Below are positions 14,787 through 25,321 of a stretch of DNA of 64,000 nucleotides, in pieces. The stretch spans positions 32,001 through 96,000 of IMG/VR virus record IMGVR_UViG_3300027754_005796, one strand, 5' to 3'. Source of the DNA: a virus. The position numbers and the translations under genes are program-made. Within the stretch, counting starts at the first letter, position 1; the number at the start of each line of letters is the position of its first letter. The notes beneath the pieces were generated by a model. That model was not told the origin of the DNA. It searched no databases and saw only the letters and a program-made list of their open reading frames with translations.

Positions 14787-15536
14787 ATGCCTAAGGTAAT
14801 AGATTGCTTTACCTTTTACAATGAATTCAAACTGCTTGATTTACGGCTTAAAGAATTAGATCAGATCGTAGATCAATTTGTTTTAGTGGAAGCAACAAAA
14901 ACATTCACGGGTCAAGATAAGCGTTTGTTTTTTGATGAAGTCAAGGATCGGTACAATAAGGCCAGAATAATTCATGTGGTTGTTGATGACATGCCTTCGG
15001 ACACAGACGCTTGGGGGCGTGAGAGACATCAAAGAAATTGCATAAGCAGGGGTTTGGATAGGATTTCTTTAAAAGACGATGACATTGTGGTTTTGACAGA
15101 TGTTGATGAAATACCAGATTCCCTTGCTTTAGAAATTGTATCAAAAGCTTGCATAAATGATTGCTTTGTGTTGGAAATGGATTTTTACTACTACAACCTG
15201 AATTGTAAATGGGAAGACAAATGGATGCATCCCAAGGTGTCCAATTACGGTAAATGCAAGGAGATGGGCGATTTTGAGACCATGAGAAGGTGGCCTTGTA
15301 GCATGGTTGTACCACATGGAGGTTGGCATTTTAGTTATTTTGGCGATATCGATTTTATTCGCAACAAGATTCAATCTTTCTCGCATCAAGAATACAACAC
15401 AGAAGAATACACTTCCCCAGAAAAAATTAAAAAATGCATCGATGAAGGAATTAGTTTGTTTGGAGAAAATAGAAGCACCCATGTTGATCCAGATGAAAAT
15501 AATTACTTGCCTAAAAATTGGAGGCTCTTGGCTTGA
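14787..15536 (+). CDS. glycosyltransferase family 17 (MGAT3-like)
   Basis: IDCFTFYNE, FVLVEATKTFTG, ERHQRN, TDVDEIP, GGWHFSYFG. Confidence 0.9.
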   Translation: MPKVIDCFTFYNEFKLLDLRLKELDQIVDQFVLVEATKTFTGQDKRLFFDEVKDRYNKARIIHVVVDDMPSDTDAWGRERHQRNCISRGLDRISLKDDDIVVLTDVDEIPDSLALEIVSKACINDCFVLEMDFYYYNLNCKWEDKWMHPKVSNYGKCKEMGDFETMRRWPCSMVVPHGGWHFSYFGDIDFIRNKIQSFSHQEYNTEEYTSPEKIKKCIDEGISLFGENRSTHVDPDENNYLPKNWRLLA

Positions 15537-15664
15537 TTGTTGATCAATCCATTAAGGTTTTTGCGTAGAACGGCAGAAATCGGCTTGATTAAATCAAAAC
15601 CAAATGCTTAAATCGCCCATAGGTAGATTTAAGTAGATTTTTAGGAACGGCTGAAATAAACATC

Positions 15665-17121
15665 ATGAGCAAAGAAAGATCATGTGTGGAGATAGTAGGT
15701 TATGAGCACCTACATCTCCACACAGATTCCTTGCCCCCGGCAGAATATCTGTCGGGGGCGCAAAAAACTTTAGTACGCTTGACGGATATGGGACTGTAGA
15801 GGAGTATGCCTTAAGGTCCATTTCAAATAATCAGAATTTTCTCACGGTTACAGATCATGGAATGATGGGTGTCATTCCACGGCAAATTCGAGCCTGCGAC
15901 AAGATTTGTGACAAACACGGCAAAGATAAACTATCTCCAATATTTGGATGTGAATTGTATGTAAATCGTCTTCAGCCAGCTACTGAAGGCTTGGAAGACA
16001 TGCGTAAGTTTATGGCCGATCTCAATGAGGAAGAGGCATTTGAACTCAAGGCTAGTCCTCATCTTTTGGCAATTGCATACAACGAAACGGGTTATAAAAA
16101 TCTGGTCAGACTTTCCAGTTGGGGTTGGACTAAGGGCTTTTATCGCCGCCCCAGAGTCAACTATGAACAGTTGCAAAAGTATAAAGAGGGTTTGATATTT
16201 ACAAGTTGTTGTTACAACAGCGAAATTGGTAGAGCCTATGAGGCTGGTGGCGAAGAAGCCGCCTGTGCCATGATCGAGCGATATGTTGGCATGTTTGGCA
16301 AAGAAGACTTTTATCTTGAAATCATGCTCTTGGATTTCAAGAAACAAAAACCCTATGACGCTTTCATAGTCAAAGCCAAAGAAAAATATGGTTTGAAATT
16401 AATCATTACGAACGATGTGCATTATTGTAATAAGCAGGACAGTCATTTTCAAAGATTGATGCTCATGGTTCAGACAAACAGGAGTATCAAGGATATTCAG
16501 CGTGCTTTGGCCGAAGACAATATGCGAGACTTTTTTGAATTGCAGGATTCTAATTTGTGGTTTAAGTCCGAAGAGGAATTAAATGAAAAGTGGATCGTTG
16601 AATACAGCGATGTGATTCCTTATGAGTTATTTTGCGAAGCAAAGCGCACTACTGTTGAAGTTTGCCGTAAGGCTAAAGGTGTAGAACTTGACCGGAGTCT
16701 TAAACTTCCGCAGATACCTAATGCTGATGATATTTTGAAAGATGAAGTTCTGAGGGGTGCGAAGTTCCGTGGAATTCCACACACGAGAGAATATTTAAAT
16801 CGAATCAAGGAAGAATACAGCTTGATCATTCGTAAGGGCTTTGCAAGTTACTTTTTGATACAAAAGATGATGACAGACGAGGCACGCAGAGTTTGCGTTG
16901 AGCTTCTTGGGTGGGGAGATGGTTCGCAAGCTTTGGGTCCCGGTCGTGGGAGTGCTGTGGGAGCTTTGACTTGTTACTGCTTGGGTATTACGAATGTTGA
17001 TCCCGTGAGAGAAGGATTGTTGTTCAGTAGATTTCTTTCTGAGGCCCGTGGTGGCAGGTCTTTGGTCCTTGAGTTCAAAAATATTGATCCATTGCCGCCA
17101 CATGAGGCTTTTAAAGATTAA
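15665..17121 (+). CDS. dnaE: DNA polymerase III alpha, N-terminal half (PHP domain plus start of palm); frame broken by a 41-nt insert
   Basis: ATG 15665 MSKERSCVEIVGYEHLHLHTD, then in another frame FSTLDGYG..TVTDHG..GCELY..TNDVHY..GPGRGSA..LLFSRFL; the ORF track misses the first ~52 residues of the spliced protein. Confidence 0.9.
15728..15768 (+). other. 41-nt frame-disrupting hairpin insertion in dnaE (candidate recoding element or mini-intron)
   Basis: tccttGCCCCCGGCAGA-ata-TCTGTCGGGGGCgcaaaaaac; 12-bp stem with one G-U pair; exact removal restores HLHLHTDFSTLDG. Confidence 0.85.
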
Positions 17122-17124
17122 AAA

Positions 17125-17150
17125 AAACACGGGGCATAAACCCCGTGTTT
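17125..17150. terminator. bidirectional intrinsic terminator between convergent genes
   Basis: aaacacgggg-cataaa-ccccgtgttt flanked by A and T runs. Confidence 0.8.
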
Positions 17151-17160
17151 ACTTTGTAAA

Positions 17161-18156
17161 TCAATATCCACGCATTTTGCGCATCATGGGATTATCCTTC
17201 ATGGCATCGAGAGGCTTGTGCATCTTGCGCATCATGGGATGATTCCTCATGGCATCGAGAGGCTTCTTCTTGGGCATATCCAAGTCTAAGTCTCCGTGTT
17301 CGTCGCCGTGCATGTCTTCATCATCATGGTGCATGCCTTCGTCGTCTTCGTCATGCTCATCTTCATCGCCGTGCATGTCTTCATCATCATGGTGCATGTC
17401 TTCGTCGTCTTCGTCATGATCGTCTTCGTCATGATCGTCTTCGTCTTCGTGCTCGTCGTCATGGTGCATATCTTCATCATCGTGATGATCTTCTTCATGA
17501 TCTTCGTCGCCAATTGGAGGACCGACCATTTCTCCAACCGCCTCTGCCAGTTTGCGGGCAAAAGTGTAGTCGGTTTCCATAAGATGAGTTACGACAGGCA
17601 TCGATTCTGGTTGTTGTGCCATGTATGCGAAGACGCTCTCAAAAATGCCCTTACGGCGCATTTCGAGAACAACATCAGCGATGTAAGAGTAGTTGCGTTG
17701 GCAAACAGAAACTGTCTCTCGGATTGCGTCATAAGCAACGCTTGTGCCTTCGTCCAAACCCTTCATTCGCTGTGTCCTAACTTTCTTAGCAAACTCAGCC
17801 AAGCTTAATCCCTTAGTTTTGTTGATCCATTCGCTGGTCTTGATATTGGGATAGCTCTTCAGTTCTTTATTGGAAACCGTATTTGTATGTTGGGTCTTGG
17901 GCATGTAATGGTGGCTCTTGTCTCCCTTGTGTCCGAGGCCATCTTTTCCATGTCCCTTGTTGGGGTCGGGAGCGTTTTTACCGCCTTTGTATGGGTGAAC
18001 TTTACCGCTTTGTCCTTTGCCTCCCGAGTGTTCAGGGGTTTTGCCAAATTCAGGAGCAGCGGGGCTGGGTCCATCATAATCGGAAACAACTGCAATCTTG
18101 GGCTTTTTGTTGCCTTTTTGTGTATCGAGAAACTCGTGAAATTTCATGTATCCCAT
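17161..18156 (-). CDS. hypothetical protein with MKFHEFL motif, basic N-half and His/Asp/Glu-rich C-terminal repeats
   Basis: 331-aa ORF with GGAG RBS; HHDDEDMH repeats. Confidence 0.85.
   Translation of the reverse strand: MGYMKFHEFLDTQKGNKKPKIAVVSDYDGPSPAAPEFGKTPEHSGGKGQSGKVHPYKGGKNAPDPNKGHGKDGLGHKGDKSHHYMPKTQHTNTVSNKELKSYPNIKTSEWINKTKGLSLAEFAKKVRTQRMKGLDEGTSVAYDAIRETVSVCQRNYSYIADVVLEMRRKGIFESVFAYMAQQPESMPVVTHLMETDYTFARKLAEAVGEMVGPPIGDEDHEEDHHDDEDMHHDDEHEDEDDHDEDDHDEDDEDMHHDDEDMHGDEDEHDEDDEGMHHDDEDMHGDEHGDLDLDMPKKKPLDAMRNHPMMRKMHKPLDAMKDNPMMRKMRGY
17168..17508 (-). repeat. coding low-complexity repeats (HHDDEDMH/DEDDH units; duplicated KPLDAMxxxPMMRKM)
   Basis: Repeated tcttcgtcatga / gtgcatgtcttcatcatcatggtgcat on the + strand; two ~48-nt copies at 17168-17267. 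Confidence 0.85.
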
Positions 18157-18226
18157 AATTTCATCTCCGTTCTATTGTTCAGTTCGGTGGCTTTATAAAA
18201 CTCAACCTCTGCAACTATATAATGAG

Positions 18227-18255
18227 TTGACTCTAAAAAAACTTTAGTATAAAAT
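18227..18255 (+). promoter_or_regulatory. sigma70-type promoter for tmRNA
   Basis: TTGACT-17 nt-TAAAAT ending 10 nt before the tmRNA 5' end. Confidence 0.75.
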
Positions 18256-18265
18256 ATAAAAACAT

Positions 18266-18615
18266 GGGGTTGTACTGGTATCGATTCAGACTCATAATCC
18301 CTAAGTGGCACGCAGAGGTTGGCCGAACGGACTCTTAAAAATTCGGCTGTCGATATAAACGACGAAACTGTTCACGCTTTGGCTGCTTAATTTAAGCAAC
18401 CACGAACCTAGGGGGCGATGTGGGTAGCGCCCGAAGGTTCGACGCTAAATCCTGCTGGTTTTGTGGCTCCAACGACCACTTAACGAGACAAAGTTGGTAA
18501 GGCCGAAGCAAGTTTTGTTCTTGGTACTTGCAAGGTTTGATTAAACAAAGAAACAAGCGTGTAGAGGCTTAGAGAGAGTGGTTTGAAGACAGGGGTTCAA
18601 CTCCCCTCAACTCCA
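18266..18615 (+). ncRNA. ssrA: tmRNA, tag (A)DETVHALAA
   Basis: 5' GGGGTTG-TACTGGTATCGA; 3' T-arm AGGGG-TTCAACT-CCCCT and CAACTCCA; G3-U70 Ala identity pair; tag ORF 18361-18390 ending ALAA-TAA; CCA not encoded (ACTA). Confidence 0.96.
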
Positions 18616-18617
18616 CT

Positions 18618-18650
18618 AAAAAATCCGTTGTTAATACAGCGGATTTTTTT
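18618..18650 (+). terminator. intrinsic terminator after tmRNA
   Basis: aaaaatccgttgt-taat-acagcggattttttt. Confidence 0.85.
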
Positions 18651-18711
18651 GTTTGCCTCACGGAGATTGCTTTTTTATAATATATCAAAGCCATCTTTAC
18701 AGGGGTATTCG

Positions 18712-19932
18712 ATGAAAATTTCAATTTTTACACCGACTCACAATACCAAGTACCTTGGTAGATTATACGAAACGATTAAGAAGCAAACATATCAAGATTA
18801 TGAATGGGTGATTGTGCCAAACAATGGAACAGAGATAAATCTTGAGCCTAATCCCAAAATCAAGATTTTCCCCACTAATGATTCCTCCAATATTGGATTT
18901 CTCAAGAATTATGCTTGCAGCAAGTCTACGGGCGAAGTTTTTTGTGAAGTAGATCATGATGATGAGCTCTTTCCAACCGCCTTGGAAGAGTGTGCCAAAG
19001 CTTTTCAAGACCCAACGGTTGATTTTGCATATAGCAATTGTTGTGATGTTGGAGAAAATTACAAGCCAAGGTTTTTTGGCGAGGCTTTTGGTTGGGTCAA
19101 CAGAAATACTGAATATGCTGGTCGAACTTTAATTGAGACTGTAGCTTTTCCTCCAAATCCTGAATCTGTAAGTAAAATCTGGTATGCCCCTAATCACTTC
19201 AGGGCATGGAGGGCAAGTTTCTACGCCAAAATTGGCGGGCATAACCCTAATCTTGACATCCTCGATGATCAAGATATCATGTGCAGAACTTATATTCAAG
19301 GCAAGATGCATCATATCGACAAGCCTCTTTATGTTTATCATTTGCACCCAGAGAACACATGTTACGGCGAAAAGAATGCCAAGATTCAGACCATGACCTT
19401 GGACCTGCATGATCAGTACATTTATCCGATGGTTGAGAAGTGGTGTGACATCAACAATTTGCCAAAAATTGATCTTTGCGGAGGGTACAGCAAGCCTAAA
19501 GGATATACCAGTATTGATCTTCTGAATGGCGATATAAACGCAGATTTGAATCAGCGATGGCCTTTTGAGGATGGGACGGTTGGTTTATTCAGAGCTCACG
19601 ATGCTCTGGAGCACATCAAGGACCCGATTCATGTGATGAAGGAAGCTTATCGTTGCTTGGCACCAAACGGTTGGTTTTTGACTTTTACTCCCTCCACGGA
19701 TGGCAGAGGGGCTTTTCAAGACCCAACTCACATCAGCTTCTGGAACAGCAACAGTTTTTGGTATTACACCAAGGCAGAAACTGCGAAGTACATCAACACT
19801 CCCGTTAAGTTTCAATTGAACAGGATCAAGAATTATTTCCCTAATGAGTATTGTGAATTGCACAATATTGTATATGTTAAAGCAGACTTATTGAAATTCA
19901 GCGGTCGCACTCCGGGCGCTATTGAAATATGA
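18712..19932 (+). CDS. GT2 glycosyltransferase fused to a SAM-methyltransferase-like domain
   Basis: ISIFTPTHN, EVDHDD; C-terminal IDLCGG, HDALEH, RCLAPNG, FQDPTH; start moved out of the tmRNA to ATG 18712. Confidence 0.88.
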   Translation: MKISIFTPTHNTKYLGRLYETIKKQTYQDYEWVIVPNNGTEINLEPNPKIKIFPTNDSSNIGFLKNYACSKSTGEVFCEVDHDDELFPTALEECAKAFQDPTVDFAYSNCCDVGENYKPRFFGEAFGWVNRNTEYAGRTLIETVAFPPNPESVSKIWYAPNHFRAWRASFYAKIGGHNPNLDILDDQDIMCRTYIQGKMHHIDKPLYVYHLHPENTCYGEKNAKIQTMTLDLHDQYIYPMVEKWCDINNLPKIDLCGGYSKPKGYTSIDLLNGDINADLNQRWPFEDGTVGLFRAHDALEHIKDPIHVMKEAYRCLAPNGWFLTFTPSTDGRGAFQDPTHISFWNSNSFWYYTKAETAKYINTPVKFQLNRIKNYFPNEYCELHNIVYVKADLLKFSGRTPGAIEI

Positions 19933-19998
19933 TTCAAGAGATGATTGCGGGGAAAAATATCTGGAATTTGGCTAACCCGGTAGATAAAGGTTAATTTT

Positions 19999-21537
19999 AT
20001 GATTCTTGCAGCATACGGCTACCACGATTCAAGTGTGTGTCTAAAAGATGGTGATCAATATTTTGTTTATGAGTTTGAGCGTTTTGCAAGAAGACGCTAT
20101 GCCGTATTAACTAAATGGTATATTGCACCGCACCAGATTGTTACAGATGAAGAATTTTTGGGGTTTTTCGATCACATCAAACAACAACACAAATTAAAAG
20201 AAATTGATGTATTTTATCATCATGAAATTTATCCTGATGATATCACACTCATCAAAAAACTGTTTGATGTAAAAGAATTTGTTCGATACGACCATCATTA
20301 CGCTCACGCAGCAAGTGTTTATAGACAAAGTCCTTTTCAAGACTGTTTCATCATCTCATACGATGGCAACGGCCAGAATAAAGATGATAGCATGAGTAGT
20401 TTCACCTTTTGGGAGGCGAGAAAAAATAAAATCAATTTGATCAAGGACTTTCAGCCTTGGGAACCATATAGTCTGGGCAACTGTTACATTTCGTTGTCTG
20501 GCGCTATGTCTTCAATAAAAAGCCATGAGAATTTGTCACGCCCCGGAAAATTGATGGGATTTTCGGGATATGGGACGGCAGTTGAGGCTTGGAAACCTCA
20601 TTTTGAAAAGTTTTTTGAGGGTGGTCATATCGAACACTTTGAAGAACTTCGTCACAATTTGGATATGAGTTTGGACAGAGACAGCTTGTCTGGTCAAATC
20701 GAAATGGATTTCGCAGCAACCATTCAATGGGCATTTGAAAATAAATTTTTCAAAGTTTTTAATTCTTTGAACATTCCGTCTGGTGCTAATATTTGCATAA
20801 CAGGTGGATGCGCCTTGAATATTTTGGTTAATCAGCGTTTATTCGACATGGGCTACAAGGTTTATGCTTCGCCTGTAAGTGGCGATTGCGGTCTTACTAC
20901 GGGCATGGTTGCCGATTATTATGGCGACAGAAATGTTGATGTCACATATCAAGGTTTTGATATACTAGACAAGGACTACAGAGATAGTGCTTTTACGGAG
21001 AAGCCTGTAAACACCGCAGAACTTGCGAAAATGCTTTGTTATGATCGAAAGATTCTTGGATATATTTGTGGACGCAGCGAAGTTGGACCAAGAGCTTTAG
21101 GCAATAGAAGTATTTTGTGTTATCCAGACATAGCTGGACTTAAAGATCGTCTTAATGCTGAAATTAAATTCAGAGAATGGTACAGGCCTTTTGGTGCTAT
21201 CTGCAAACTCGAATCTCTATCCAAATACTTTGAAAATGCTTGCGAATCACCATACATGAACTTCTGTCCTGTGTTAAAGCCTGAATACAGGTTTGATTCG
21301 ATTACTCATATTGACCAGACTTGTCGAATTCAGACTGTCACTCGTGAACAACACCCAGAAATCTATGATTTGTTGACAGAAATGGAAAAACTAGGCGCTG
21401 TGGGTCTTTTGTTGAACACATCTTTCAATATAAAAGGCCTACCAATTTTGACAAGACTCAAGGATGCATTTGACAGTATGCATCAAACCAAATTAGATGG
21501 TTTTTATTTCAATGGTAGGTATTTTGGAAGGAATTGA
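19999..21537 (+). CDS. carbamoyltransferase (NodU/CmcH family)
   Basis: HDSS, HHYAHA, DGNG, GKLMG, GGCALN, GRSEVGPRALGNRS, KFREWYRPF, LLNTSFN. Confidence 0.93.
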   Translation: MILAAYGYHDSSVCLKDGDQYFVYEFERFARRRYAVLTKWYIAPHQIVTDEEFLGFFDHIKQQHKLKEIDVFYHHEIYPDDITLIKKLFDVKEFVRYDHHYAHAASVYRQSPFQDCFIISYDGNGQNKDDSMSSFTFWEARKNKINLIKDFQPWEPYSLGNCYISLSGAMSSIKSHENLSRPGKLMGFSGYGTAVEAWKPHFEKFFEGGHIEHFEELRHNLDMSLDRDSLSGQIEMDFAATIQWAFENKFFKVFNSLNIPSGANICITGGCALNILVNQRLFDMGYKVYASPVSGDCGLTTGMVADYYGDRNVDVTYQGFDILDKDYRDSAFTEKPVNTAELAKMLCYDRKILGYICGRSEVGPRALGNRSILCYPDIAGLKDRLNAEIKFREWYRPFGAICKLESLSKYFENACESPYMNFCPVLKPEYRFDSITHIDQTCRIQTVTREQHPEIYDLLTEMEKLGAVGLLLNTSFNIKGLPILTRLKDAFDSMHQTKLDGFYFNGRYFGRN

Positions 21538-21538
21538 A

Positions 21539-22033
21539 ATGGAACCAATCTTGCTTTCAAAAGAGTATATTCTTGTAATCGATACTGACAAAATAGCATA
21601 TGATTTTTACAAGGAGCTTTGCTCATATTGCACGGGATTCACTCATGAGTCTGCAAGAGATAATTTGTTTAGCGATATGTTTGACGAAGAAGTAGAAGAG
21701 GCAAATTTATTTGCCGAAATGATTTCAGACAGATTGGACGATGATGGCTACCTTGCTCCATCTTGCGTCTGGTTGAACAAAAGATATCGCTGCAACGATG
21801 TCGGTAGGTATGAATTGCTGGATGAAAATAATTTCGAGGAATATTCTTGTCCAGCGCCCATGAGTATAGGAATATTTCTCAGTCAAGAGCCAGAGCAACG
21901 GCATTTGGATGTGATTAAACAAAGAGCCAAACAATTCTTTGAGAAAGTTTGGAAACCAGCCGGTGTTGTGGCAATCGAAGGTTTTAGGCTGATCGTCCAT
22001 ACCAAATATGGTGAGGAGAGGATCATAGACTAG
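21539..22033 (+). CDS. hypothetical protein
   Basis: ORF following the carbamoyltransferase. Confidence 0.65.
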   Translation: MEPILLSKEYILVIDTDKIAYDFYKELCSYCTGFTHESARDNLFSDMFDEEVEEANLFAEMISDRLDDDGYLAPSCVWLNKRYRCNDVGRYELLDENNFEEYSCPAPMSIGIFLSQEPEQRHLDVIKQRAKQFFEKVWKPAGVVAIEGFRLIVHTKYGEERIID

Positions 22034-22058
22034 ACTTTTTTCACATTTGTGTTATCTT
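22031..22058 (+). promoter_or_regulatory. possible sigma70 promoter for dnaE C-half
   Basis: TAGACT-16 nt-TATCTT with TG at the extended -10 position. Confidence 0.45.
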
Positions 22059-22085
22059 GATTTGTCGAAATAATCGAGGCAGCAC

Positions 22086-24833
22086 ATGAGTCGTGAAGAA
22101 TTTATACATGTTTTGGACAAGGCATTCAAGAATAGCGGACACGCCAATGATGTCCGTTATCAGAAAAGGTATAAGTGGGAATTTGATGAGATTTTAGGGA
22201 AAGAAAAATACCAGTATTTTTTTGATCTGTATAAAACAAAAACTCGCTATCCGCAGAATCAAAACAATCTTTTGGTCTGCAAGTTATTGGGAATTGTTCC
22301 CGATTTTGATATAGATAAAGAACCCGCCTATGTTTTTACAGGCGATTTGCCAGATATCGATATCGACTACTTGCCTGCTGTGCGTGATTATTTAAAAAAC
22401 ACTTGGGCAAGTAAGACATTTGGCGAAGAGTATGTTTGCAATATTGGGAACTACACTACTTTTGGATTAAAGTCCGCTCTGATTGACATGGCTCGTGTCC
22501 ATGATGAATCTCGTGAAGAGATAATGGCGATTACTAAAAACTTAGAGGCGAAGGATGATGAAGGTAATCCCATGACTTGGGACGCTGCCTTGCGTTTGAA
22601 TTTAGAGCTTAAGGAGTATGCTGATAAGTATCCACAGATCGCAGATGCTGCTCGTAGATTGGTGAACCGCAATCGTGGCATGGGTGTTCATGCTGCTGGG
22701 CTTATTGTTTCAAGCATTCCCCTGCATGATCTTGTGCCCTTGGTGAAAAGAAAAGATACCCCACAGGCATCGGCATGGGTGGAAGGCTTGCATGGTCAGG
22801 ACTTGCAGCCTGTAGGGTTGGTAAAGTTTGATTTACTGGTTATTTCAAACTTATTGCAGATTGCTCGGTGTTGTGAATTGGTTAAGAATCGTCGTGGCTT
22901 AAAGGGCATTTGCAATCGTCCAAACGAACCCGACTGGACAGATGTTGATCAATGGCGAAACGATCCTGAAGCACTTTCGATGGCAAATGCCGGTGATCTG
23001 AAGTGTATTTTCCAGTTTGATAGCGAGGGCATGCGAGGTCTTATCCGTTCTGGTGGTGTTGATCGATTTGAAGACTTAGTGGCCTATTCTGCGCTTTTTA
23101 GGCCGGGTTGCTTAGCGTCAGGTATGACCAAGCGTTATGTTGAACGCAAGAAGGGTCGTGAGAAATTTTCTATCCATCCTCTGATGCAGCCCATTCTTGA
23201 AAAAACTTATGGGATTATGGTCTATCAAGAACAAATCATGCAGGTATTGTATGTGGTCGGTGATATTCCTTTAAAAGACTGTGAAATTATTCGTAAAGCG
23301 ATCAGTAAGAAGAAGATTGAGGCTTTTATCAAATATAAAGAAATGTTCATTGTCAATGGACAAAGGAATCTGCAAGCTTCAGAAGAATATTTGGTTGAGC
23401 TTTTTCAGCAGGTCGAGACATTTTCAGAGTACGGGTTTAACGCTTCTCATGCAGTTGCTTACAATTACATTTCTAGCATGTTGTTGTATCTCAAAGCCCA
23501 TTATTCTCATGAGTTCTATGCTTCTATGTTGAGTTGTGAAACTCTGAGTGAAAAAATCAAGGATTACAAAATGGAGGCCAAGGTGCATGGGGTGGACATG
23601 CATCGTCTTGATATCAATAAATCTAAGGTCAATTTTGAATTGATTGGCGATATGATTTATTATGGGTTTTCAAAGGTGAAGGGAATAGGAGACAAACCAG
23701 CAGAAAAGATTGTCGCTGGGCAACCTTACAAATCGTTCGAGGACTTTTTGTATCGTTGCACAACTGACTCATCTATTTTGAAACCAATTCTTGGTTTGCG
23801 TTGTTTTCGTGATCGTGATCCAGTTGTGCTTTGGAAGTTTGCTGATCATTTCAAAGACTGCATGAAAAAGAATGACGATAAAAAAAAGCGATATGAAAAG
23901 TCGTTGGAAAAGTATGAAATGGAGTTCAAGGAGCTTGTCCCATCTGATACTAGACTTTTGAGTGATTTTTCCGGCGATCAGCCTTTTGATGCTGATGAAT
24001 GGAAAAAGTACGATGTCAACGAACTAGTGGATGTGGATCAAGAAACTGAGTGCGAGCAGTCCGAGGGAGGCGAGGCAAGGATCGTTAAGGAAGAAGTGAC
24101 AGTTGATGATACTGATGTGTTGGTTGAGCGTGAAGTCACACGCTATTTCAAGATTGTAAAAATCAAAAAGCCTAGAAATGTTTTGGTGCAATTAAAGAAG
24201 TTGTGGAAGAAGCGAAAGCTGACCATAGATCGCCGTATGAATGCGACTTTCAAGGAATTGCCTCAGTTGGTTGAGTTTAATGGTGATGAGCATCAAATTG
24301 ATGATAGTCTTTTGAAGGAATTGCGTGATCCGGTCCAATGTGAGCAGCTTTATTATGGATGGGCTTGGATACATGAATTGGAGCGCAGTCCAGACTACAA
24401 GGGGAATCTGACTTTTGATGCTCTTCGCAACAATATTGATCAAGTTGCAGGTCCTGCGGAATTACAGATTAAGAAAAGCGCATCTGTAAAGAGTCAGAAG
24501 GGAACGACATATAGGCAGATAATTGCTGAGGATGTGACTGGACAGGAGAATAAGATCAATATTTGGGCCGAGGATTGGGGGCGTTGGGCAGAAGAATTTA
24601 AAGTTGGTAACTTACTTAGAGTACGGATACAGCCTCCGTCTGGCGGGTTCAATACTTTTACTTTGGAATCGAACCAGCTAGGCAAATACCGTGGCAGCAA
24701 AAAATATCGGGACAAGGATGATGATCCAAGGGTTTTTGTCATGCAATTTGGCAAGAAAGAAGAGGAAAAATTTCTTAGCGACGAGGAGGCATTGTTACAG
24801 TTTTCGGCTTGTAAAATGAAAGAGAAACCATGA
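22086..24833 (+). CDS. dnaE: DNA polymerase III alpha, C-terminal half (catalytic palm, fingers, HhH, OB)
   Basis: LPDIDIDY catalytic aspartates; GVHAAG; GLVKFDLL; IFQFDS; RPG; TYGIMVYQEQ; YGFNASHAVAY; KVKGIG. Confidence 0.95.
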   Translation: MSREEFIHVLDKAFKNSGHANDVRYQKRYKWEFDEILGKEKYQYFFDLYKTKTRYPQNQNNLLVCKLLGIVPDFDIDKEPAYVFTGDLPDIDIDYLPAVRDYLKNTWASKTFGEEYVCNIGNYTTFGLKSALIDMARVHDESREEIMAITKNLEAKDDEGNPMTWDAALRLNLELKEYADKYPQIADAARRLVNRNRGMGVHAAGLIVSSIPLHDLVPLVKRKDTPQASAWVEGLHGQDLQPVGLVKFDLLVISNLLQIARCCELVKNRRGLKGICNRPNEPDWTDVDQWRNDPEALSMANAGDLKCIFQFDSEGMRGLIRSGGVDRFEDLVAYSALFRPGCLASGMTKRYVERKKGREKFSIHPLMQPILEKTYGIMVYQEQIMQVLYVVGDIPLKDCEIIRKAISKKKIEAFIKYKEMFIVNGQRNLQASEEYLVELFQQVETFSEYGFNASHAVAYNYISSMLLYLKAHYSHEFYASMLSCETLSEKIKDYKMEAKVHGVDMHRLDINKSKVNFELIGDMIYYGFSKVKGIGDKPAEKIVAGQPYKSFEDFLYRCTTDSSILKPILGLRCFRDRDPVVLWKFADHFKDCMKKNDDKKKRYEKSLEKYEMEFKELVPSDTRLLSDFSGDQPFDADEWKKYDVNELVDVDQETECEQSEGGEARIVKEEVTVDDTDVLVEREVTRYFKIVKIKKPRNVLVQLKKLWKKRKLTIDRRMNATFKELPQLVEFNGDEHQIDDSLLKELRDPVQCEQLYYGWAWIHELERSPDYKGNLTFDALRNNIDQVAGPAELQIKKSASVKSQKGTTYRQIIAEDVTGQENKINIWAEDWGRWAEEFKVGNLLRVRIQPPSGGFNTFTLESNQLGKYRGSKKYRDKDDDPRVFVMQFGKKEEEKFLSDEEALLQFSACKMKEKP

Positions 24834-25321
24834 GTGAGTTGGTTATAGATGAAAGCAATTTCTCCCAATATTTCAGAGATTGCCGTATGCATCGTCCAGA
24901 GCGTGGAGATGTCATGGCTTGTTATATTGCTGTTGCCGAGTTTGTTGATGGTGCGATGAAAAAGGATGTTATTGAGTTGTTGTTAAACCATGAGAAGGCT
25001 TTGGCAGCTACCAGAGTCCTAAGGAAGCTTGGTTGCGCCAAAGAAAGAGATGCCATTAGAATCTGTCGTGAAATTGCTGAAGATTTGGCAAATGGCATGA
25101 ACAAGGAAGAGGTTGAGAACAAGCCTTATGAGTATGAATTAGAGGCTTTTTATTATACCAAGAAGGAATATGTTCCAGTTGATGATTCTCATTGGTCAAT
25201 AATTAGCCTTAGCAATCTCGATCAATTCTTGGACAAGGAAAAGAAGGTGCAGATGTCTGCCAAATTTGTCCGTAATGAACACCCTAGTCAGGATAATGTT
25301 TCTGATGAAGCGCAAGTATAA
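24830..25321 (+). CDS. hypothetical protein
   Basis: ATGA overlap with dnaE-C. Confidence 0.7.
   Translation: MSELVIDESNFSQYFRDCRMHRPERGDVMACYIAVAEFVDGAMKKDVIELLLNHEKALAATRVLRKLGCAKERDAIRICREIAEDLANGMNKEEVENKPYEYELEAFYYTKKEYVPVDDSHWSIISLSNLDQFLDKEKKVQMSAKFVRNEHPSQDNVSDEAQV

Follow-up and report, generated by a model that had tools for sequence, protein, structure and literature searches.

A candidate translational bypass element within the PHP motif of a jumbo phage dnaE gene

How can a phage replicase be made from a gene whose conserved PHP motif is broken by 41 nucleotides (nt) that leave its two sides out of register? This question is raised by the dnaE gene in a 64,000-nt stretch of viral DNA (hereafter the window), which comprises bases 32001-96000 of the 172,833-base-pair (bp) IMG/VR virus record IMGVR_UViG_3300027754_005796. 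The completeness of this record is estimated at ~40%, and the phage is therefore considered a jumbo phage; the guanine-plus-cytosine (GC) content of the window is ~40%. We propose that the 41 nt are probably a programmed translational bypass (hop) element with GAU as take-off and AAC as landing codon. The relevant features of the window, all on the plus strand, are:

15665-15727 (+): N-terminal half (N-half) of dnaE, first coding segment, 21 codons (MSKERSCVEIVGYEHLHLHTD), with the HxH of PHP motif I
15683-15724 (+): 5' stem-loop with inner extension GTAGGT/ACCTAC, its 3' arm ending immediately before the predicted take-off codon
15725-15727 (+): predicted take-off codon GAT (Asp), which closes the conserved motif ahead of the insert and where the 5' stem ends
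15728-15768 (+): 41-nt insert, a putatively untranslated coding gap; absent from 47 related loci, with homologous 40-, 42- and 44-nt versions at the same junction in related loci L021, L053 and L060
15733-15759 (+): gap hairpin, 12-bp stem (one G.U pair) and loop ATA, starting 5 nt past the predicted take-off codon
15766-15768 (+): predicted landing codon AAC, matching GAU at positions 2 and 3, within the invariant GCAAAAAAC
15769-17121 (+): N-half, second coding segment (FSTLDG...TDHG), PHP and start of the polymerase core by Pfam
22086-24833 (+): C-terminal half (C-half) of dnaE, a separate gene that completes the split polymerase (PF07733 at positions 100-259)

The interrupted gene and its relatives

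The frame opened by ATG 15665 reads MSKERSCVEIVGYEHLHLHTD and ends the conserved motif with HLHLHTD at GAT 15725-15727, after which it is out of register and reaches a TAG stop at 15797-15799. From TTT 15769 onward, in the -1 (+2) frame, the conserved protein resumes with FSTLDGYG...VTDHGMMG, up to a stop at 17119-17121. These positions agree with an earlier model-made reading of the sequence (the original prediction), and Pfam assigned the continuation to PHP (2.3e-32) and to the first part of DNA_pol3_alpha (1.6e-21). No single frame of the insert and its flanks reads across both coding segments of one conserved protein. The partner half is intact, as the original prediction had also claimed, with a product of 915 amino acids (aa) and a PHROG match to DNA polymerase (7.7e-132).

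The insert itself was likewise described correctly as a GC-rich 12-bp stem with an ATA loop and a run of six A; one of the 12 pairs is G.U. Its arms are GCCCCCGGCAGA (15733-15744) and TCTGTCGGGGGC (15748-15759), and GCAAAAAAC lies directly 3' of the stem. The region 15675-15790, which contains both hairpins, folds at -54.1 kcal/mol compared with -27.1 +/- 3.1 kcal/mol for shuffled sequences (z = -8.7). The gap hairpin sequence occurs once in the window and once in the complete record, and a scan of the sequence collection matched it at this dnaE junction only. A miniature inverted-repeat transposable element or a repeat of the repetitive extragenic palindromic type was therefore ruled out; a looser scan produced chance matches in unrelated genes only. 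A weak Rfam match to a His-leader attenuator (28 bits against a 49-bit cut-off, E 0.27) was judged to be chance, and an alternative pairing ACAGAT/ATCTGT was rejected as it is not conserved in L021. An alternative genetic code is not indicated, as long open reading frames (ORFs) are open under translation table 11 and the window's insert contains no stop codon.

Scans of viral and metagenome contigs yielded 129 related loci (designated L) with 48-89% protein identity to the window, 117 of which hold both motif anchors (EH.H.H upstream and LDG..DHG downstream) and represent 71 distinct junctions. The junctions are distributed as follows:

Uninterrupted (HLHLH-T/S-D-F/Y-S-x-LDG): 47 of 117 loci
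Insert of 5-9 nt, either starting with TAG or TGA directly past the last His codon or forming CTY-TAA-CTN or CTT-TAG-CTA at a Leu codon: 52 of 117 loci
Hairpin insert of 40-48 nt: 10 of 117 loci
Group I intron: 7 of 117 loci
Duplicated N-terminus (L093): 1 of 117 loci

Some non-intron interruption is thus present at this site in 62 of the 117 loci, and all types of interruption hit the same few codons of the PHP motif. The 47 uninterrupted genes encode the canonical motif that deletion of the window's insert restores, in line with the original prediction. No cultured close phage was found; the best match, LR756511 from a 595-kilobase (kb) uncultured phage (54% identity), is uninterrupted. The clade consists of widespread uncultured jumbo phages from lake, marine and soil environments.

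Hairpin inserts related in position to that of the window follow GAY and precede (T/A)TT in every case (the window, L021, L053, L060, L022, L082 and L083), and occur in several lengths:

Window: 41 nt
L021: 40 nt
L053, with four identical copies on contigs from other samples: 42 nt, phase kept but a TAA in the loop
L060: 44 nt, the closest relative (89% protein identity), with TAA in the zero frame
L022, L082 and L083: 40 nt, an unrelated hairpin with an in-frame TAG

Alignment of these homologs revealed compensatory changes in the gap stem. Relative to the window, L021 carries T-A for C-G, L053 carries T-A for G-C, and both have G-C in place of the G.U pair. The window, L021 and L053 share the 3' flank GCAAAAAAC without any change, and the hairpin starts 5-6 nt past the take-off codon in all five hairpin variants. 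As all three phases are represented among the lengths and zero-frame stops occur in three versions, no one frameshift or readthrough event serves all of them. Judged from these sequences, skipping or removing the whole insert would be the only way to restore HTD-F/YSxLDG in all versions.

Two further loci combine or extend these forms. L064 (~1391-1510) is interrupted twice: an 8-nt TAG insert follows His, and 15 nt away a 48-nt double-stem hairpin insert lies between CTC TGA and (I/L)DG, a site at which L087 has a related 46-nt insert. In L093 (381-540), a decayed old copy of the N-terminus (MEILGFEHLHIDTDFSVLDQ..., ending in TAA) overlaps the new start MDIVGFEHLHLHTDFSLLDG by ATGA, and this duplication resembles the trace that replacement of a 5' cassette would leave.

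The 5' stem-loop and selection on both flanks

Upstream of the break, TGTGTGGAGAT (15683-15693) is perfectly paired with ATCTCCACACA (15714-15724), directly followed by GAT. This 5' stem-loop, which the original prediction did not mention, is tied to the interruption. In all 26 distinct short-insert junctions, the 11-nt stretch directly 5' of the predicted take-off codon is complementary at 11 of 11 positions to an upstream 11-mer, and the arm ends before CAY. The same complete pairing is present in five of six hairpin-insert junctions (10 of 11 in L053), with the arm ending before GAY, as in the window, L021, L053, L060 and L022; the CTY-TAA-CTN forms match at 10 of 11 positions. For comparison, the best match at the same positions in 31 uninterrupted relatives averages 7.4-8.2 of 11. 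The arms covary between hairpin-insert loci:

L021: 5' arm AGTGTGG..., 3' arm ...CACACT
L060: 5' arm AGAGTGG..., 3' arm ...CACTCT
L022: 5' arm GGAATGAAGAT, 3' arm ATCTTCATTCC

A formal covariation count over 20 short-insert sequences found all 220 cells paired, with three pairs changing on both sides (18 cells). The covariation score was 0.267 compared with 0.130 for shuffles, none of 500 of which reached 0.267, and controls slid along the sequence paired at 40-51%. In the repeated CAY-CTN-CAY, synonymous codon choice sets which copy pairs, and the stem end is therefore placed at the take-off codon. Because of its G.U pairs, the structure can form on the sense strand only, which argues for RNA rather than a DNA cruciform.

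Both coding flanks are under purifying constraint irrespective of the interruption, and the claim of the original prediction that neither has decayed is borne out. Across the 12 codons ahead of the break, the ratio of nonsynonymous to synonymous polymorphism (pN/pS) is 0.12 for interrupted genes (18 distinct sequences) compared with 0.16 for uninterrupted ones (11 sequences). Across the 28 codons that span LDG to DHG on the other side, both groups (35 interrupted and 31 uninterrupted sequences) have a value of 0.26. In the relatives, no consistent ATG, GTG or TTG start codon was identified between the break and the Met following DHG, and in the window both the LDG and the DHG motif have been passed before the first in-frame start, ATG 15862, is reached. 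As both flanks are constrained and the second segment has no start of its own, ribosomes probably enter the second segment from the first.

Two observations concern the sequence around the 5' stem. In the interrupted short-insert loci, the N-terminus is extended by 8-12 codons that include a conserved AAAGGAG(G) motif (K-G-G/D) ~40 nt upstream of the take-off codon (e.g. L005, 2930-2945), the window counterpart of which is degenerate (AAAGAAAGA, 15671-15679); the motif could act as an internal Shine-Dalgarno-like (SD-like) element or as a second start signal, or could belong to a nascent-peptide signal. L065 and L068 (~1440-1500) are uninterrupted, yet have kept the N-terminal extension and a 5' stem paired at 11 of 11 positions (AAGATGGAGAT/ATCTTCATCTT), and may represent a recent precise loss of a short insert.

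The predicted bypass and its alternatives

Among the routes named in the original prediction, ribosomal bypass from GAU to AAC is favoured by the insert phases, the in-frame stops, selection on the flanks and the covarying 5' stem that ends at GAY. The two codons were assigned on account of the stem end, the motif to be restored and a codon rule that recurs in the relatives. In 10 of 15 distinct short inserts, CAY is matched by NAY. Other forms are CTY-stop-CTN in L035, L041 and L044 (CTY TAA CTN) and in L103 (CTT TAG CTA), and CTC-stop...ATY in L064 and L087; in L060 the pair would be GAT and GAA, or TTT and TTT. The relatives have TAG, TGA or TAA directly past the take-off codon.

In the predicted course of events, ribosomes would start at ATG 15665, translate 21 codons and stall with GAU (15725-27) in the P site, since the stable GC hairpin 5 nt downstream would block the messenger RNA (mRNA) entrance. 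In this way the gap hairpin may stand in for the stop or slow codon that is absent at the window's take-off site. Peptidyl-tRNA(Asp) would release GAU, and the 5' stem-loop, located partly inside the ribosome, would re-fold behind it and favour forward movement. Such pairing of mRNA behind the ribosome has been proposed to drive forward movement in T4 gene 60 (bioRxiv 10.1101/2024.12.09.627546). After passing the hairpin, the ribosome would allow the tRNA to re-pair with the near-cognate AAC (15766-68) in an A-rich stretch 6 nt past the hairpin, for which the G-run of the 3' arm of the gap stem could serve as an SD-like anchor 7 nt upstream of AAC. Decoding would resume at UUU 15769 and yield a single polypeptide with the canonical HLHLHTD-FSTLDG.

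Several points weigh against bypass. The codon following the predicted take-off codon in the window is the sense codon UCC and not a stop or slow A-site codon, and GAU and AAC match at only two of three positions, whereas gene-60-type cassettes use fully matched codon pairs (bioRxiv 10.1101/2022.08.31.505936). A cognate GAC (the Asp of LDG) is located 15 nt further on. Landing there would delete FSTL, which is argued against by the conservation of F/Y-S-x-L. The nascent peptide is only 21 residues long, and a tunnel signal like that of gene 60 is therefore doubtful. Finally, the replicase subunit whose synthesis would depend on the efficiency of the bypass is apparently essential.

The explanations that compete with bypass differ in which of these observations they accommodate. 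If the N-terminus were left unjoined, translation would start at ATG 15862 without the first PHP motifs, or a peptide of 21-44 aa would complement the rest of the protein non-covalently. The presence of this in-frame ATG and the existing division of dnaE into two genes whose products must assemble are compatible with such an arrangement, but the 28 codons between the break and the ATG, LDG and DHG among them, show the same constraint as in uninterrupted genes while having no start codon of their own, the 12 upstream codons are also constrained, and a covarying stem that tracks the break point would have no reason to exist; we consider an unjoined N-terminus unlikely. Removal at the RNA level would instead make the 5-48-nt inserts micro-introns, cut and religated by a novel phage or host activity that recognizes the 5' stem-loop and the junction, or perhaps guided by the two hairpins, and descended from or competing with the group I introns at the same junctions. 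Excision would explain why inserts in any phase are tolerated, and true group I introns do occur at these junctions in relatives. Nevertheless, Rfam RF00028 (group I intron) had no match in window positions 15000-25000 even at E <= 1, the inserts have no similarity to group I intron ends by eye, and 41 nt is far too short for self-splicing. Furthermore, the 5-9-nt inserts of relatives, located at an adjacent codon behind the same 5' stem-loop, are removable by no known splicing system, and stops right past the take-off codon together with near-cognate landing codons are features of translation and not of splicing. The excised or remnant group I intron entertained in the original prediction thus found no support, and excision in either form is decidedly improbable; if true, bacteria or phages would possess a micro-intron system.

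If ribosomes slipped by -1 on the A-run (CAA AAA ACU), as also entertained in the original prediction, ~14 extra residues (SLPPAEYLSGAQKN) would remain in the PHP loop and the junction peptide would be HTDSLPPAEYLSGAQKNFSTLDG. The six A at the insert end and the -1 phase required in the window fit such a slip. However, the zero-frame register does not form a canonical X XXY YYZ heptamer, and the hairpin is located upstream of the A-run instead of downstream. L021, with an identical GCAAAAAAC, would need +1 or -2, L053, L060 and L022 have zero-frame stops before the insert end, and the coding content of the insert is not conserved, which together make slippage a very improbable solution. The remaining alternative, a dead allele or an assembly artefact, draws on the fact that the window derives from a single metagenomic assembly. 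Assembly error is very unlikely because homologous inserts with compensatory changes are present in independent metagenome assemblies, with one variant identical in five samples. The undecayed flanks and the frequency of non-intron interruptions at this site in related loci argue in the same direction, and there is hardly any probability left for a dead or artefactual locus.

Known systems, origin and significance

To our knowledge, utilised bypassing has been shown in very few systems, namely T4 gene 60 and its homologs, Magnusiomyces mitochondria and probably the Hau3 terminase. Full-text literature searches on bypassing and hopping gave no dnaE case. The 50-nt translational bypass of T4 gene 60 (Huang 1988) has homologs in topoisomerase genes of Myoviridae (Manning and Atkins, bioRxiv 10.1101/2022.08.31.505936). 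The window resembles gene 60 in that a gap of similar length (41 compared with 50 nt) interrupts a replication-related phage gene, with a stable hairpin at the gap start, a 5' stem-loop upstream of the take-off codon, stop or sense codons past the take-off codon among variants, and a setting rich in mobile elements. It differs in the host gene, which is dnaE with its PHP motif and not a topoisomerase, and shares no sequence homology with gene 60. Moreover, the gap lies 21 codons from the start, so that no long nascent-peptide signal is possible, and the gap hairpin begins 5 nt past the take-off codon, whereas the gene 60 hairpin includes it. The 5' stem-loop, which is not conserved among gene 60 homologs, is the best conserved element in the dnaE loci. 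A homologous gene 60/MobA cassette (topoisomerase II large subunit with a MobA/GIY-YIG/VSR neighbour) was rejected, given the different host gene, the lack of sequence resemblance and the absence of such a neighbour among the nearest ORFs searched with Pfam.

A 5' stem-loop also accompanies the 10-nt bypass in the terminase gene of Streptomyces phage Hau3, a bypass that mass spectrometry has confirmed in E. coli (Antonov et al. 2023, PMC10732093). With its short gap, a 5' stem-loop as proposed stimulator and a slow or stop A-site codon, it resembles the 5-9-nt inserts of the relatives, while the gap of the window is four times longer, contains a hairpin and lies in another gene than the Hau3 bypass, which is triggered by a rare UUA codon. 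The mitochondrial byp elements of Magnusiomyces capitatus (Lang 2014; Nosek 2015, cited in PMC5009743) are similar as hairpin inserts of 27-55 nt that occur in any phase in conserved genes, tolerate imperfect codon matches and are suspected to be of mobile origin. In contrast to these organellar elements, of which there are dozens of copies per genome, the dnaE inserts occupy one site per genome and the window's element is not repeated in the record. Finally, the matched Leu codons flanking a stop in L103 (CTT TAG CTA) and in L035, L041 and L044 (CTY TAA CTN) are similar to synthetic stop-hops (Weiss et al. 1987, cited in PMC5009743), unlike the long hairpin form of the window; no natural stop-hop was known as of that 2016 review (PMC5009743). 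The window element may work like gene 60, the Hau3 gap and the mitochondrial byps; it is homologous to none of them.

The gaps likely originated at a hot spot for mobile elements, because group I introns occur at the same junctions and insert types are swapped between near-identical genes. All five intron loci scanned (L030, L048, L123, L127 and L129) were confirmed by Rfam as RF00028 (85-102 bits), the L127 intron sits at precisely the window's junction, GAT|TTT, and group I introns are present at both junctions used by hairpin inserts. On a maximum-likelihood phylogeny of the N-half, the insert types are dispersed and imply at least 18 changes, and near-identical genes differ in type, so that the site turns over much faster than the surrounding gene. 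Further signs of mobility are inteins elsewhere in the gene, the split gene, variable neighbours, mosaic insert types and the replaced N-terminus of L093. The inteins were identified at other positions in the dnaE N-half of L047 and L050, upstream of the tblastn match (LAGLIDADG and intein-splicing Pfam matches, ...VHN|C junction), and the only nuclease-type matches among neighbours, one LAGLIDADG and one intein-splicing domain, were assigned to them. No free-standing endonuclease family was identified by Pfam among the nearest 62 upstream and 69 downstream neighbour ORFs, and the window's own neighbours gave no homing-endonuclease match by Pfam or PHROGs. In the gene 60/MobA cassette, the insert protects against nicking (bioRxiv 10.1101/2022.08.31.505936). 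By analogy, it may be conjectured that the dnaE gaps are immunity indels against homing.

The gene neighbourhood contains additional features. dnaE is split just before the PDID catalytic motif, its two genes lie 5 kb apart in the window, and in L011, L015 and L093, the relatives checked, the N-half terminates at a similar point. Located between the halves are glycosyltransferase/methyltransferase, carbamoyltransferase and transfer-messenger RNA (tmRNA) genes. The phage-encoded tmRNA gene (18266-18618, plus strand; Rfam RF00023, 130 bits; tag peptide DETVHALAA) keeps its position in relatives (L030, 6703-7061; L022, 4887-5230), and it is pure speculation that this tmRNA could rescue ribosomes that fail to bypass. 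Directly after the N-half, on the opposite strand, lies an ORF of 331 aa (17161-18156, minus strand), which is found beside dnaE in many relatives (30-53% identity) and has no family match in Pfam, PHROGs or Atlas.

For annotation, these interruptions mean that gene callers truncate such dnaE genes or label them as pseudogenes. A regulatory checkpoint on the replicase, as envisaged in the original prediction, is speculation. The group I introns at the same junctions suggest that a contest with mobile elements gives rise to the gaps or is what they guard against. At one site in an apparently essential replicase gene, these phages present a natural series of gaps, comprising 5-9-nt stop gaps, candidate stop-hops with matched codons and 40-48-nt hairpin gaps, and these selected natural variants could be used to study sliding driven by mRNA folding, the match of the landing codon and the replacement of a stop codon by a hairpin.

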